From a virus (Duplodnaviria > Heunggongvirae > Uroviricota > Caudoviricetes), in IMG/VR virus record IMGVR_UViG_3300028591_000093, positions 1 to 16,764 of that record: DNA of 16,764 bases; one strand, 5' to 3'. Both the position numbers and the translations under genes were made by a program. Each line of letters begins with the position of its first letter. Positions within the stretch are counted from its first letter, which is position 1. Shown in pieces: positions 4,703 through 12,100 of this stretch. The notes beneath the pieces were generated by a model. The model saw only the letters and a program-made list of their open reading frames with translations, was not told the origin of the DNA and ran no database searches.

Positions 4703-6004
4703 TCAGTTATAATAATAGTATTTATGTTTATATTGTATTGTTGTAGCAAATGGGAAATATTCCTAATCCCTTGCTAATCTATCTTTCAAAACTTCAGAAG
4801 AAGAGATAAAGGTATAGTCTTCTGATTCTTGGTCTTCTTCCAAGAAGGAAAATCTAACAACTACTTTATCTACTCCTTTTATAGGAACTATTGCAAATTC
4901 TTTAATTGCAATCTGCTTGTCTACCACATCTACAATACTGAGTCTTTTCTCAATAGGTACACCAAGCCATCTGTCATATCCCTTTTTCTCAGTCAAAGTC
5001 TGGTAGGGCATTTTCTTAAACAATTTAATATTTCTACCATTTAATATCACTTTCCACAAACCAAAAGACCTAGTTAGTTGTAGCCAACCCATATAACTTG
5101 CCATTTGTTGTTTGAATACATGGTCATCAACACCTTGCTTATTAAGTTTATTGGCCTTTTGTTTTATATGCAAATATAAATGTCTCTGGAGTTTAATACT
5201 GTTTTCTGTAAATATACAGCCAACCATTTTAACCCCACTTCTCACTGGAGCAATCCTCACATTATTCTTTACTGTAAGTTTATGACTATCAGCAAATTTA
5301 AGAATTTCTCCAAGAAGGAACTTAGCCATTTCTTTTGTAGGTATAATAATGAGTATATCATCCATATACCTAAAATAATACTTTACTCCAAGAACTTCTT
5401 TAAAATAATGGTCACAGGCAGATAAAAATAAATTAGCAAGATATTGACTACTGCCAACACCAATTGCTAAACCTTTCTCGTTTCTATCTATCAACCTTTC
5501 AAAATACCTTATGATTCTCTTATCTTTAAATGTTTCTCTGACCATTTGCTTCATTATATCATGGTCAATAGACTCATAAAAGTGTCTGAAATCAGTTTTA
5601 AGATAATACCATTCTTGATGAGTATTTACAACTACAGATATTTGTTTAGCTAGTTTATGTAAACCTCTGTATTGTAAACTACCAAAAGAACACCAAGGTA
5701 TTCTATCAAGAAGTTCCCATTTAACCTTTCTTAGGACAGTATGGTCAAGTATTTTATCAGGATAAAGATTTGGGGCATGAATATCTCTTTCTTTGGGCTC
5801 ATAAACCTTAAAAGAAAAGAGTGGGGTTAACTGATAAGTTTCATCTTTAAGTTGTTGCTACAATGTAGCTATTATCTAATCATGTTGTCTCATGCATCTT
5901 TCTACAGCCTTCTAATTCTTACAGACTGCTAAGGCCTCTCTAAAACCATTTTCTAGATTACCCTTTTCATAAACCTCTTCCCATGTAATTTTTGACCTTA
6001 TCAT
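4703..6004 (-). CDS. DGR-type reverse transcriptase, 433 aa, with a ~100-aa C-terminal extension
   Basis: Contains YYFRYMDD (catalytic YxDD) and GLAIGVGSSQYLANL (IGxxxSQ motif typical of DGR RTs), plus N-terminal F.VYEPKER.I and YLKTDFRHFYESIDH motifs. ATG at 6004, TAGs at 5912, 5876, 5858 and 4763 read as Gln, ends at TGA 4703. Adjacent to a TR/VR pair. Confidence 0.95.
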
Positions 6005-6011
6005 AATACTT

Positions 6012-6251
6012 CCCTGTCCTAGTTAGTAAGTCATCTTCAGCAATTGCTTACCAACACCTTACTAATATACAGTGTTCTGTTGTTAAACAACAAGGTTGTG
6101 ACTTAGTTGCACTAAGGAAGTGCTATATTAACAATATGTATTAAGTGACAGTTAGGAGGCAAACCCATTCACATTGTTAGCATTGTTAACATTGTTAGCA
6201 TTGTTAGCACGACCAAGCCCATAGAGGGTTTGCCTACCTAAGTCACAACCT
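6012..6251 (-). ncRNA. Putative structured DGR template RNA (5' flank - TR - spacer)
   Basis: A perfect 14-bp inverted repeat (6093-6106 / 6238-6251) encloses a 10-bp inverted repeat (6157-6166 / 6226-6235) and a small hairpin (6109-6123). The transcript ends are inferred, not seen. Confidence 0.6.
6155..6231 (-). repeat. DGR template repeat (TR), 77 nt
   Basis: Minus strand reads AA ACC CTC TAT GGG CTT GGT CGT GCT AAC AAT GCT AAC AAT GTT AAC AAT GCT AAC AAT GTG AAT GGG TTT GCC TCC. It is intergenic, rich in AAY codons and aligns without gaps to 8229-8305. Confidence 0.95.
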
Positions 6252-6258
6252 ATAAAAA

Positions 6259-6528
6259 TTATTTTCTAATAATCTTATAATAAGTACTAGTAATAGTACC
6301 TCTACCACCCTCACCACCAGGAGTACCTGTTGTTGTATAAGGACCTTCTTTTAAAGAAATACCTGTAGTAATTAAATTGTCAGATTCTGTTGAAGGACCT
6401 ACCAAGTACTAGAAGTATCCAAGAGACATTCCTCTTAAAAAGTCTTCAATTGGGCTGGTAGCATCTTCTCCATTTAAGTACTGAAAGTACCCTAATGAAA
6501 TCCCTCTTAAACACAAATCATCCAACAT
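6259..6528 (-). CDS. 89-aa hypothetical protein with a tandem LRG(I/M)SLGYFQYL repeat, located at the position usually held by avd
   Basis: ATG 6528 lies 2 nt after the target-gene TAA. One TAG (6409-11), TAA at 6259. Missing from the ORF track because of the TAG. Confidence 0.75.
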
Positions 6529-6530
6529 AA

Positions 6531-8663
6531 TTAGTCTCCTTTTGTTACAAATACTGCAAATTGCATGTAAGGTTGGTCAAGAACTGATTTAGAACCAGCT
6601 TCTACTGAACCAGAAGTTGTGTAAGCATATGGATTACCAGAACCTTGTGGTTGGTCATTGATTGAGCTGACATTGATAACACCATTACTCTTCAATACAA
6701 AGTATTCACCTCTAGTTGCAGCAGGTACCCACTGTGCAATAGGAACAACCCTATCAACACCAGATTGAGTAATTTCTGCATCCGTTCTATCATCAAACAT
6801 CACTGCTATTTGATAACTGTTATCAGTTGGGCAAGTAAATGGAAGATTAGCATCTGCCACAAAAGACTCACCTGGCTCAACAGTTCTAGCATTGAATGTT
6901 ATTTGTTTACCATTTTCAGGATTATAATAAGTTACACCAGAAACAAGATTAACTCCTGTACCAACTGTGCTATAAACACTAGACCTACATCTACAATATA
7001 CAACATTCTGTACATTAGGGTCTACTATTTGATAAGCATAGATAGTACCTGTAGCATCTGCACTCATTGTGTAGCTATTATAATTTCCTTCCACAGCTGC
7101 TGCTGTTACAACAAGCATATCATCTGGTTTTCTACCTTCATAATCAGCATATGTTGGATTCCAGTACATTGCTCTGTCAGTATCAGAAGCATTGCTGTCT
7201 TTTCTTAACAAGTATTTACCAGCAGGCAGCGAATCACCAGGACCATACTGAGTGCCAGTATACTTATCTAAGTTCATAGTTGCATGTTTGTCAGTAATAT
7301 GGTCAGATTGAATCGCATATACTGCATTATATTGCAACTGTGAAGGATTAATCTTCATTATTTTTGAATAGATAGCACCTTTATTTTCTTGAGTGTTACT
7401 CTCATCAAGTTTGATGTTACCATTTTCTACCTTGATACAACCTGTAATAGTTCTGTTATCAAAGCACCAAGTGTGACCATCAGAAGCAGTTCTTACACCA
7501 GCACCTGTAGTGCCAAGTACTGCAATGTGTGCAGCAGGTGGAAATGCTCCATAATATAAGTTATTCTGTGGGAATACACAAGCTGCTGTTGGCTTCAAAG
7601 TGAAATCAAGCCCATCTGGGTCATTGAAGATGTCATAAGCAGTTTGGTCAGGGAATACACAAGCATTATCACCAGTTGCAAATTGCATTGACTTAGAAGC
7701 TGTGATAAGATTTAAACTAATCATTGCATTTACTACATCAGAGATATTTGGTGTATCACCTGCAATCTCATTATCAGTAAGTGTGATAGTTAAAGTAACA
7801 TTTTCATCATCATATGCATAACTGAGTGTTTCACCAGTATCCCAGAGAATTTGCCAGTTCTTAGTTACATTACCTGTACCACCAGCTCTTTTCACAAAAT
7901 ATCTACAGTCACTTGCAAAACAACATTGCTGGAAGTAATCTCTTGAGTTTTCATTTGCCTCAACAAAAAAGTCCCACTTTGCATAGACACATCTGTTTCC
8001 ATAATGTCTACCAGTAGCGGCTCCATCTCCTCTTCTTACAATGTTATTTTCTACTCTATCTATTCTTGTATTGTAATAAGTGCAATATGTAGATTGGCTT
8101 CCTGAGTAGTTACTCAATACTACTCCACAACCAGTATTTCTTCTGATGTCAGAGTAGATGATTCTACTGGGGCTGCTGCCTCCAGCACAGCCCCTCCATA
8201 GTTTACTTTGGTGTACTAGGACAGGGCTGGAGGCAAACCCATACACAAAGTCAGCATAGCTAACACTGCCAGCACCGACAGCACGACCAAGCCCATAGAG
8301 GGGTTTATAAGCATCAACTGTTGAAGCATCTGCACCAGCTACTTCCTCACCACCATTCATAAATATCATGTTAGGATAGCCACCAAACCAAGGCAATGTA
8401 TTAACACCCTTACCATCCCAAATAGCAGCACCATAGTAGTCAGCTTTTAGTTGTGTTGAGTGATTACCAACCATAGAATCTGAGAAAATACCTCTCAAGA
8501 TTATAGTACCTGGTTTACTTGTTTGATTATAATATGCTTGAGTAATAGTTCTGTAAGGATTCTGCATAGTACCATCACCATGCTCATCTGAACCAAATCT
8601 ACTATCAACATATTTATTACCATTAGTTGTTCTCCATCTAAAATCTCTATTAGTTGTTGCCAT
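6531..8663 (-). CDS. 710-aa DGR target protein, probably a receptor-binding tail fibre/spike with an N-terminal beta-helix-like start motif
   Basis: Contains the VR at codons ~120-145. The N-terminal YVDSRFGSDEHGDGTMQNPYRTITQAY resembles the cap motif of right-handed parallel beta-helix proteins. It lies in the fibre gene cluster. Confidence 0.8.
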   Translation of the reverse strand: MATTNRDFRWRTTNGNKYVDSRFGSDEHGDGTMQNPYRTITQAYYNQTSKPGTIILRGIFSDSMVGNHSTQLKADYYGAAIWDGKGVNTLPWFGGYPNMIFMNGGEEVAGADASTVDAYKPLYGLGRAVGAGSVSYADFVYGFASSPVLVHQSKLWRGCAGGSSPSRIIYSDIRRNTGCGVVLSNYSGSQSTYCTYYNTRIDRVENNIVRRGDGAATGRHYGNRCVYAKWDFFVEANENSRDYFQQCCFASDCRYFVKRAGGTGNVTKNWQILWDTGETLSYAYDDENVTLTITLTDNEIAGDTPNISDVVNAMISLNLITASKSMQFATGDNACVFPDQTAYDIFNDPDGLDFTLKPTAACVFPQNNLYYGAFPPAAHIAVLGTTGAGVRTASDGHTWCFDNRTITGCIKVENGNIKLDESNTQENKGAIYSKIMKINPSQLQYNAVYAIQSDHITDKHATMNLDKYTGTQYGPGDSLPAGKYLLRKDSNASDTDRAMYWNPTYADYEGRKPDDMLVVTAAAVEGNYNSYTMSADATGTIYAYQIVDPNVQNVVYCRCRSSVYSTVGTGVNLVSGVTYYNPENGKQITFNARTVEPGESFVADANLPFTCPTDNSYQIAVMFDDRTDAEITQSGVDRVVPIAQWVPAATRGEYFVLKSNGVINVSSINDQPQGSGNPYAYTTSGSVEAGSKSVLDQPYMQFAVFVTKGD
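8169..8194 (-). promoter_or_regulatory. Candidate IMH-type GC-rich hairpin 34 nt downstream of the VR, inside the coding sequence
   Basis: GGGGCTGTGCTGGAGGCAGCAGCCCC can fold into a ~10-bp stem with a 2-nt bulge and a 4-nt loop. It uses GC-ending codons that are unusual for this genome. Confidence 0.5.
8229..8305 (-). repeat. DGR variable repeat (VR), encoding KPLYGLGRAVGAGSVSYADFVYGFAS
   Basis: Identical to the TR except at 14 positions, all A in the TR: ACC>CCC, AAC>GTC, AAT>GGT, AAC>GGC, AAT>AGT, AAC>AGC, AAT>TAT, AAC>GAC, AAT>TTT, AAT>TAT. Confidence 0.95.
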
Positions 8664-9167: not shown

Positions 9168-12100
9168 TTAAGATGCAGCACTTACTATACTTCTTTGTGT
9201 ACCACCATTGATTAACCAACCAATAGTAGGAATATAAGTTCCAACATATTCTGCTACTTGACCAGCAGGAATTGATTCAATGTTTGTCATTAACTTTGCA
9301 GTTACTCCACCTACTGTATAGAAAGTAGGAGTTACAGCACTACCACTAGTATTAGAAATGATAACAGAGCATGTAGTTACTTTACCTGTATTAGATGGTT
9401 GTCCAACATAAACAGTAGAACCTGTAGTTATGTATACTTCATAATTACCATTCATAGGTGATGCTTGAGATAATGTTGTAGTATATCTACCAACATGACC
9501 AATTACATCTTGAATAGATAAATGAGATGAAGTTACTGTACCACCATTATATCCACCTACATTTTTAAGATAGAAGTTATCTCCAGATAAAGTATAACCT
9601 AATGCACTTATTGCATTATTACTATCAATTGCTACATTATCTCCAGAAGTATATTTGGAATCAGATGCAATCTAATAAATCTTTGAACCATCATTATAGA
9701 AAAGCTTACCTGTTATAGGATTGTAACTTTGTCTAGACCCATTGAAATGTGACATTGGGTCATCAGCTTCACCACCCGCTATATAAACTTTTTCATAATC
9801 AGTTCTAGCATTATTTAATTGCCAAACTCCATAGTCGGTACTTGTCTTATCAACATAGAATATAAGATTATCAATTATGATTTTAAGACAGTTAATATAT
9901 AAGTTCTGATATGAGAAAGCATTATACATAAATTTGCTTTCTCCTGCAAACATGCTCCATAAATCAGGAGTTACAGAATTGCCGTTTCTATCATATACTC
10001 CACTTCCTGTTGTATAATCTGGTAATGCTGGCAATGCAATATTAGTCACAGGATTTTTACCTGAACTAGAATAAGGAGTAAAATCATATGTTTTACTCTT
10101 AAAGTCTATCTTTAACTCTGAACCATTGTAATCAGCTCCTTCAATTGTAGAACTTGCTGTACCAAACTTTAATGTAAGAATGCCGTTGTCAAATGAAACA
10201 AGGTTCTTCATTACAGCAGCATTACCAGAAGAATTAGTATCTAATTCAGAAAGATATGGAGCTAACCAATAACCTTTATCCCAATAATTACCAGCATCTT
10301 TTTGACTAAAGTTACCATCAATTATCTTTGAATTATACCATTTCTTAGTAGAAATGTCATATATAGAACCAAATATATAAATAGTACCTGTATAGCTTTC
10401 AGAAGAATCTGAAAGTTGAGCAATAGACATCGAGCTAGAATTGGTTACAACTCCATTGATAAATCCAATATAACCTGAAGCTTCAACTGAACTATTAGCA
10501 GTTACTGTTTCTGTTCCAATAAGTACTCTATTATGTCTGCCAGTAGAGGTTTTGATGTTAGCAATACTATATACATTTACAGTTCCAGATGGGAATGATT
10601 CAGCACCTTGAGAAGAAACTCTACCTGTCCAGTAAATAACTTTAGCAGTATTATTGTTTTGATTAACACTTACCCAAGCAAATTCACTAGGCATTTTAGG
10701 AGAATTCTCTCCAGTACTACCACTAGGATAAATATCATATAAAGTATTTCTATAATAAACATCTTTATTAGTAGAAAAATGTCTTGCAACAGCATTAGAA
10801 TCATTTACAATAGAGAAACCAATTTGGTCTCCAGTTGTATTACCCGAAGTTGTTCCAATTAAAGATTCTACTATATAAGAAGATTTACTATATGGCATCA
10901 AGTAACCATTGAATTCTATAGAATTTACTTTATTCTTAACAGCACCACCATCATTATACCATCTACTATAACCATAACCACTATTAGATACATATGTACC
11001 ATCTCCATATTCTGGCATGTTGTTACCATAACTGTTATTATGGCAAGCAGCCTAGAATTGTTGCCAAGATGCAAGAACATCAGTTTCAATATTATCAGGA
11101 CTCTTACATTGTAAAAAATCTTGTTGATTATCTACAATCAAAGCATCTTGATATAACAATTGATGTGTAGTTAACTCATCATTTTCATCAGAGTAGATTA
11201 ACTCATGTCTAACTGTTGGTACTTCACAATGAATTTTATTATCATCATCAATGTTGATAAGTCTACCTGCTTCATAAGCTCCCTTACCACCACTTCCTTG
11301 AATCTTTAAGTCATAATTAGTACCATCAGTATATTCAATTCTGAAAGTATAATAATCTTCCTCATCAGGCAATCCTGATACTTGATAAATAGTTCTAATA
11401 CTTCTACATCTCAAATCTCCAAGTTCGATAATAGTTTGAAAACTATCAAAAGACATTTGAAGTTTTTGATAGCTCATTGGAGGATAATCCTCATCAGTAA
11501 TGTTGATTAACCTAAATGCTGGAATTAAACCTTCAGCATTAAGTAAATCCCCTTTAGGACCTCTAATGTTACCACCAGTGTTTTGCCAGATTTGAGTAGA
11601 GGTTAATTCATCAATACTGTTTAATCTAAATACATCACCAATATTAGCAAATGTATCATCGGTTCCTGTATAGACAGCATAGTCACCAACATCAGCACCA
11701 GCAATGTTAATTGGGGCAGTAGTTGTAAAGAACACAGGATGACCTTGTTCACCTCTAGGGCCCTGGTCTCCTTGCTCACCTTTTACACCATTTCTTACCT
11801 TGAATGTACCAATATAAGTACTATCTTCAGGAGAATCTCCTTCTTCCCCAACATACATATCATAGAAGTTATAATCACCACTAGTTGTTATAAATGCTGT
11901 TGGGTCTGATTCATTCTCATTATTAAGAACAATGTTGTTTACAGCATATCCTCTTGGCCCTCTAAAACTACCAATCTTATCAAAGCTTGTTGTAGTAGCA
12001 CCATGAATATCAAGGCCATTACCTAAACTGATATAAACATCACCTGTATCAGTATTTAAGTAATAATCACCTCTTGGAATATTCATCACATAAGTACCAT

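Follow-up and report, generated by a model that had tools for sequence, protein, structure and literature searches.

How a diversity-generating retroelement (DGR), a hypermutation system, chooses where cDNA synthesis starts and where it ends has been worked out for one element only, the Avd-dependent element of Bordetella phage BPP-1. The locus described here, which lies in a phage genome with no match to the Avd family, raises the question of what might define these two points when that protein is missing. An original prediction, made by reading the sequence alone, held that nested inverted repeats fold the template repeat (TR) into a presented loop and that the stems might set the start and stop points of reverse transcription. 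The analysis reported here makes it probable that the region is the cis-acting RNA of a DGR, read on the minus strand, and that the outer and the inner stem would play different roles in it.

The DGR and its genomic setting

The window, by which we mean the whole stretch of 16,764 nucleotides that was analyzed, is part of a 169-kb virus record (169,151 bases; G000) with a CheckV completeness of 89%. It has a GC content of 35% and carries every gene on the minus strand. The virus is a TAG-recoded gut-type phage, and reading TAG as a sense codon merges ORF fragments into complete genes. The genes and repeats that make up the locus are the following.

4703..6004, minus strand: DGR reverse transcriptase (RT), 433 aa (PF00078, 3.9e-12; phrog_1423, 4.5e-72)
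6155..6231, minus strand: TR, 77 nt, a direct repeat with 8229-8305
6259..6528, minus strand: 89-aa repeat-containing ORF in the avd position, not Avd by sequence
6531-8663, minus strand: 710-aa target ORF, holding the variable repeat at about residues 120 to 145, near its N terminus
8229..8305, minus strand: variable repeat (VR), within the 710-aa target ORF

The RT gene, which starts 151 nt downstream of the TR, contains four in-frame TAG triplets that are sense codons, and its frame is open when TAG is read as Q. TR and VR differ at 14 positions, all 14 of which are TR adenines when read on the minus strand, the sense strand of the DGR RNA. A DGR is recognized by a TR/VR pair with adenine-only differences together with an adjacent DGR-type RT, and both are present here. 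Avd, the accessory protein found in most DGRs, was not detected: its family, PF05635, had no match across the 169-kb record, which is 89% complete. The same record contains a single TR element of this kind.

The 89-aa ORF that occupies the avd position had no match of any sort in Pfam and PHROG searches, Avd included, and contains the internal repeat LRGISLGYFQYL twice. In most homologues, a small ORF of ∼70 to 140 aa lies likewise between the target gene and the TR. Many of these have 2 to 4 internal repeats (e.g., xSFSAxx...), and the C terminus often reads ...IIR(V)K. This conserved family as a whole had no Pfam or PHROG match, and its sequence is not Avd-like.

Relatives of the element were found by using an RT alignment as the query in viral, metagenome, and genome collections, whereas a single-protein RT scan of viral contigs recovered none. 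RT relatives with 97% (P0001) and 73% (P0002) identity were identified, and loci whose RTs are 31 to 73% identical have a similar TR just upstream of the RT gene. Where homologous loci extend far enough, a VR is found ∼1.7 to 2.1 kb upstream, with differences almost all at TR adenines; such adenine-directed TR/VR differences were seen in 13 homologous loci. The RT of the window has a C-terminal extension of ∼100 aa, which is kept across the clade of 430-aa RTs. In one homologous locus, the TR element (L089:744-898) equals the version found in L088 and L090 (L088:292-446; L090/L093) except at TR adenines, where GCCAACAACAACAACAAC is changed to GCCCTCAACTCCGACTAC; either this TR has been overwritten by mutagenized cDNA or the sequence is a VR/TR assembly chimera.

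Nested inverted repeats around the TR

Two nested inverted repeats surround the TR as predicted, with arms that are exact reverse complements over 14 bp in the outer stem and over 10 bp in the inner stem. A small hairpin with GCACT and AGTGC arms was also found precisely where it had been placed. These elements, and two more that follow the outer stem, are listed in their order along the sense strand.

6238..6251, minus strand: 5' arm of the outer stem, AGGUUGUGACUUAG, the exact complement of 6093-6106
6226..6235, minus strand: 5' arm of the inner stem, AGGCAAACCC, the exact complement of 6157-6166, straddling the 5' boundary of the TR
6157..6166, minus strand: 3' arm of the inner stem, GGGUUUGCCU, at the 3' end of the TR and identical in the VR
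6109..6123, minus strand: small hairpin GCACU-UCCUU-AGUGC, present in the fold and followed by AA and the outer 3' arm
6093..6106, minus strand: 3' arm of the outer stem, CUAAGUCACAACCU, the exact complement of 6238-6251
6078-6092, minus strand: short stem-loop UGUUG-UUUAA-CAACA with a 5-nt loop, directly 3' of the outer 3' arm
6072-6077, minus strand: tail GAACAC, following the stem-loop at 6078-6092

The nine AAY codons of the TR (6167-6205) lie between the inner arms and hence in the loop, in agreement with the original prediction. The outer 5' arm is noncoding, starts 7 nt past the stop codon of the 89-aa ORF, and is separated from the inner 5' arm by 2 nt. Apart from the outer stem, no perfect inverted repeat with arms within 250 nt reaches 14 bp in the window, and mononucleotide shuffles of the window contain a mean of 0.02 such repeats. 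For the inner stem, the numbers are less telling: 24 ten-mer pairs forming 10-bp inverted repeats were observed in the window against 8 expected, and a single 10-bp repeat could well arise by chance in a sequence of this length. The case for the inner stem is therefore one of position and comparative evidence. An explanation by chance inverted repeats, or by a by-product of the coding constraints on the TR, would suit the 10-bp repeat taken alone, but it has to contend with the rarity of 14-bp repeats in shuffled windows, with the covariation of both helices in 29 sequences (see below), and with arms that lie partly outside the coding-constrained TR. Its probability is negligible, the shuffle counts and the covariation having already refuted it. 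The second-longest local inverted repeat in the window, a perfect one of 13 bp (TCTGGTAATGCTG; 10018-10030 and 10217-10229, 186 nt apart), lies inside a 1,245-aa ORF.

Folding and covariation of the helices

The minimum-energy fold of 6080-6265 on the minus strand contains both stems; its energy is −54.2 kcal/mol (z = −4.65), and none of 200 shuffles folded to a value as low. An alternative register is available in which UAGG, located where the outer 5' arm faces the inner stem, pairs with CCUA just past the inner 3' arm (6153-6156 / 6237-6240), so that the minimum-energy fold reads 11 + 14 bp instead of 14 + 10, suggesting possible branch migration between the outer and inner helices. When homologues were folded singly, an outer stem of unrelated sequence was present in 18 of 19, with a conserved hairpin directly after it, and the inner stem was present in most. 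The one exception, L092, has the outer stem with one mismatch, as read by hand.

Because MAFFT RNA alignments placed the arms out of register, a covariance model was used instead. The model was built from the window sequence alone with three helices, the loci were searched with it, and the model was then rebuilt and the search repeated. The aligned set comprises 30 TR elements, 29 of them distinct, from loci with RT identities of 31 to 73%. In this alignment, which the covariance model fitted to the structure and whose pairing figures are thus somewhat inflated, the 29 distinct homologues show changes on both sides of 13 of the 14 outer pairs (94.2% of cells paired), 6 of the 10 inner pairs (89.2%), and 4 of the 5 pairs of the stem-loop at 6078-6092 (95.2%). 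The covariation score was reached by none of 500 shuffles, and sliding the partner columns by 1 to 3 positions lowered pairing to 39 to 48%. RNAalifold, in an independent prediction, recovered the outer helix in full (14 pairs), together with the hairpin and six of the inner pairs. To judge by the arms themselves, runs of 10 to 14 complementary positions with lineage-specific sequence cannot stem from alignment fitting. In L081, the nearest relative, the outer arms AGGUUGUGACUUAG/CUAAGUCACAACCU are replaced by AGGUCUAGCCAGGU/ACCUGGCUAGACCU, a compensatory exchange of 10 positions in each arm. The A-rich tail, RAA(AA)YA, is kept in 30 of 30 elements, and one G-C pair close to the foot of the outer duplex is invariant among them.

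The helices are thus present, conserved with compensatory changes, and located where VR homology ends (see below). On this comparative evidence, both inverted repeats are real, conserved RNA helices that would close the DGR template into a loop, and the folding and covariation results bear out the defined RNA architecture that had been proposed from the single sequence.

The inner helix is rich in G·U and U·G pairs, which are the commonest type at four pairs (in 9 to 17 sequences), and at one further inner pair G·U ties with C-G (alignment A9). This abundance places the structure on the sense-strand RNA. It also bears on the possibility that the inverted repeats act not in the sense RNA but in the cDNA or in DNA, where they might form a cruciform or serve as a signal for recombination. 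Such a role has some precedent, as the known homing elements include a DNA stem-loop that lies downstream of the VR, but the G·U and U·G pairs of the inner helix would become C-A mismatches on the opposite strand or in the cDNA, and neither the inner nor the outer arms occur in full length around the VR. Action of the repeats at that level is highly improbable.

The L081 inner helix has three central U-U mismatches and keeps only the helix ends, so the full length of the inner helix is not essential. L081 also has an equivalent of the small hairpin, again of 5 bp and of other sequence, GGUGU-ACAUA-GCACC followed by AA; in homologues more distant than L081, this hairpin is not evident.

Among more distant DGRs, the model found weaker matches just upstream of the RT gene with the same layout of outer stem, inner stem, UGCCnnUUGGCA hairpin, and A-rich tail. 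Most of these matches are from Bacteroidota, with others from Eubacteriales and Acholeplasma MAGs. The inner, TR-closing helix is a less familiar extra helix that is common in Avd-less, mostly Bacteroidota-type DGRs, and no published description of it was found in the searchable literature. The Rfam curated covariance models had no match in 6000-6300 at an E value of ≤1, and no conserved stem-loop of the Avd-binding type was found just downstream of the TR across the homologues. In three MAG loci (L161:941-1115, L164:977-1150, and L163:942-1109), the VR region aligns to the whole TR-element model with 46 to 60 bits, suggesting that the VR-flanking sequence of these loci also resembles TR flanks.

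Where copying ends

In the cryo-EM study of the BPP-1 RNP, an element termed cPRT Stop was described that consists of a duplex, a short stem-loop, and unpaired adenosines engaged in A-minor contacts with G:C pairs of the duplex. The duplex, of 11 bp, is formed by the avd 3' end with Sp59-70, and the cDNA ends 4 to 8 nt before this stop duplex (after the avd strand). The same study predicted putative stop duplexes, with a mean of 13 bp, in 207 of 278 DGRs.

In 19 loci of the family studied here, 1 to 10 nt separate the outer 5' arm from the start of VR homology, with 6 nt in the window. Given this spacing and a layout that matches cPRT Stop, cDNA synthesis would very probably be ended by the outer stem, by analogy with BPP-1, and the A-rich tail may dock by A-minor contacts as in BPP-1. 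Both inner arms, by contrast with this position of the outer stem at the border, lie within the VR-homologous region. VRs with A-to-N changes inside the inner 5' arm occur in the window, L003, L167, L092, and L165; in the window, A6229 of that arm is C in the VR. Homology that continues through the inner arm with changes at adenines indicates that the cDNA would read through the inner stem and end at the foot of the outer stem, and it argues that the inner 5' arm is not the primer and the inner stem not a boundary. The earlier idea that the stems set both the start and the stop of reverse transcription thus holds in part: the outer stem fits the stop, but the inner stem does not fit the start. 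The further suggestion that the stems explain the very short TR finds no support; in homologues bearing the same stems, the VR-homologous stretches measure ∼83 to 99 nt.

These data also weigh on a reading in which the inner stem is itself the template:primer duplex, so that its 5' arm would prime at the boundary marked by its 3' arm and the AAY loop alone would be copied. The inner 5' arm is indeed complementary to the TR 3' end, the TR 3' end of BPP-1 is likewise in a duplex beside the stop duplex, and every AAY codon falls in the loop. An arm whose adenines are mutated in the VRs just named, and across which VR homology runs to 1 to 10 nt from the outer stem, is however template; VR homology likewise includes the inner 3' arm, and a separate spacer segment shows primer-like complementarity to the VR flank (see below). 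Priming from the inner stem is therefore very unlikely.

Alternatively, the stacked helices, ∼24 bp in all, could form an RNase III-type processing or stability element that excises the TR RNA from a polycistronic transcript or protects it, instead of stopping the RT. In favor of this reading, the helices form a long, near-continuous duplex at the border between coding RNA and TR, and cleavage of the TR RNA in the course of priming has been reported for BPP-1. What directly follows the 3' arm, however, is a conserved hairpin with an A-rich tail, which specifically matches cPRT Stop, and the TR boundary tracks the helix foot. We consider a processing element in place of a stop unlikely, while noting that the two roles are not mutually exclusive.

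A candidate primer in the spacer

With the outer stem as the probable stop, the start of copying has to be sought on the other side of the TR, where the following features are relevant.

8215..8226, minus strand: VR 3' flank CCCTGTCCTAGT, IMH-like, complementary to the spacer 12-mer
6137..6154, minus strand: TR 3' flank, IMH*-like, a degenerate version of the VR flank, in which CUGUC (6147-6151) can pair with GACAG (6014-6018)
6023..6065, minus strand: long stem-loop of the spacer, UUAGUAAG ... CUUACUAA, which forms in the minimum-energy fold
6012..6023, minus strand: spacer 12-mer ACUAGGACAGGG, candidate RNA primer and target guide ("anti-IMH"), the exact complement of 8215-8226

The 12-mer ends 7 nt before the RT start codon. 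It is the sole spacer segment complementary to the VR/TR flank, and it lies downstream of the stop strand. Homologues have equivalent segments of 8 to 12 nt that are complementary to their VR flanks, differ in sequence, and are located 8 to 40 nt before the RT start. Measured against shuffled flanks, the complementarity between primer and VR flank had a P value of ≤0.03 in 12 of 23 loci, and several of the remaining loci have 5- to 6-nt matches at the same two positions; L081 and L082 stood outside this test because their VRs lie beyond the contig ends. Pairing of the candidate primer with the TR flank, as scored with RNAduplex in the homologues, was no better than that of shuffled primers, the zone having been mispicked in three loci, and in the window this pairing amounts to 5 bp only (GACAG:CUGUC). 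Taken together, the complementarities make the spacer 12-mer at 6012-6023 the likeliest primer, and cDNA synthesis would most likely start in the TR 3' flank paired with this segment. Two other candidates were rejected, as neither showed consistent complementarity: a BPP-1-style primer immediately upstream of the outer 3' arm, and the conserved CAAAUACUU motif as a partner of GAGUAG.

The position of the long stem-loop at 6023-6065, which has two compensatory pair changes relative to L081 (as read from the alignment), suggests that it is an RT-binding domain. In the distant homologues L083-L099 and L161-L171, the spacer between the A-rich tail and the RT gene contains CUUGUGAGUAG, a small covarying hairpin, and CGAAAAUUGG ... 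GCAG, all strongly conserved; this motif is possibly their RT-binding domain, and the window and L081 have the stem-loop at 6023-6065 instead. On the target side, a perfect 10-bp inverted repeat, TGCCTCCAGC / GCTGGAGGCA (8177-8186 and 8226-8235), pairs the final bases of the VR and the first bases of the VR 3' flank with a segment of the target gene ∼40 nt farther downstream, and it occupies the place of the post-VR DNA stem-loop of BPP-1.

A model for the DGR RNA

The explanation that we think is probably correct as a whole is as follows. The outer 14-bp helix would pair sequence upstream of the TR with the downstream spacer, organize the RNP, and bring cDNA synthesis to an end a few nucleotides short of the paired region. 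Beside it, on the same 5' strand, the inner helix of 10 bp would stack, closing the TR into a hairpin loop and holding the TR 3' end next to the stop duplex; the RT would read through this helix and unwind it, which would make it a scaffold or a gate and not a boundary. Initiation would take place in the TR 3' flank, with 6023..6012 as the probable primer; being also the exact complement of the VR 3' flank, this segment could direct the RNA-cDNA hybrid to the target.

The window belongs to a large group of gut-associated Avd-less DGRs. These elements keep the stop module, with its duplex, its hairpin, and its A-rich tail; they have in addition a covarying helix that would close the template, and their primer/guide strand seems to lie in another place. 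Should this be borne out, the stop module would represent the conserved core of DGR RNA, and the presentation of the template 3' end would be a property that can be rewired. Possible uses include the annotation of TR boundaries from sequence and the design of compact, Avd-free DGR templates for targeted mutagenesis.

Comparison with BPP-1 and other systems

Judged by its layout, the outer stem is this phage's version of the published stop duplex. Both are duplexes between sequence upstream of the TR and the spacer (14 bp here and 11 bp in BPP-1), in both a short stem-loop and an A-rich tail (unpaired adenosines in BPP-1) come directly after the downstream strand, in both the TR emerges as a loop, and in both the VR-homologous region stops a few nucleotides from the upstream strand. 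The outer 5' arm would correspond to the avd strand of cPRT Stop, the outer 3' arm to its Sp strand, and the stem-loop at 6078-6092 with GAACAC to its stem-loop and unpaired adenosines. The upstream strand here is noncoding and follows a small non-avd ORF, however, whereas in BPP-1 it is part of avd, and the hairpin loop is one of 5 nt and not UNCG. Because the genome has no avd gene, no Avd-binding stem-loop is expected, and the BPP-1 mechanism is transferred to it by analogy.

In BPP-1, the TR loops out between the stop duplex and the adjacent TR:Sp template:primer duplex (cryo-EM study), which is formed by TR117-129 with Sp47-56 (PMC5703328, PMC6182149). The notion of a presented loop had thus already been published for BPP-1. 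The two elements also have in common that the TR 3' end is held in a helix beside the stop duplex and that a spacer segment is more complementary to the IMH of the VR than to the IMH* of the TR. Naorem et al. proposed that the RNA primer directs homing because it pairs with IMH better than with IMH* (PMC5703328). Consistent with a remark in the same paper, we found that Sp48-56 (AGGUGGUCA) of BIP-1/BPP-1 can pair with VR118-126 (UGACCACCU) without any mismatch, which is not so for TR118-126 (Bordetella phage BIP-1, L241, 2082-2275).

The partner of the TR 3' end differs between the two systems, being a spacer strand 2 nt upstream of the stop strand in BPP-1 and the TR 5' flank, through the inner stem, in the window. 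The TR is a bulge loop in BPP-1 and a hairpin loop here, and the strand that continues through both helices is the spacer strand in BPP-1 and the 5' strand here. No counterpart was found to the nested primer strand of BPP-1, which precedes the stop strand by 2 nt. The candidate primer lies instead ∼70 nt downstream of the stop strand, so that its pairing with the TR flank would form a pseudoknot across the outer helix; with the primer 3' of the stop strand, the layout would be permuted relative to that of BPP-1. A BPP-1 RNA lacking TR 10-107 still supports cis-primed synthesis, which means that a TR-closing helix is no general requirement. In a fold of the BPP-1 RNA, the 5' end of the TR seems to pair with its GC-rich 3' end; this fold has z = −1.1 and was given no weight as evidence. 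The outer stem alone is an expected DGR feature, and what would be new relative to the known architecture is the inner helix together with the displaced primer.

Telomerase RNA offers a more remote parallel: a template-adjacent helix limits copying (e.g., Tetrahymena stem 1/TBE), and a closing stem encloses the template domain. The likeness to the DGR clamp is general only, the RNA being unrelated and the RT belonging to an unrelated lineage. The closer comparison is with BPP-1, and here we put forward a tentative idea, to which we give less than even weight. The RNA of Avd-less, mostly Bacteroidota-type DGRs may be a permuted BPP-1 RNA, with the TR as the hairpin loop of a two-helix stack, the primer/guide on the 3' side of the stop strand, where a large spacer domain has its base, and a pseudoknot across the outer helix, and in it the inner helix would replace, by RNA alone, the positioning that in BPP-1 is done by the spacer strand and Avd.
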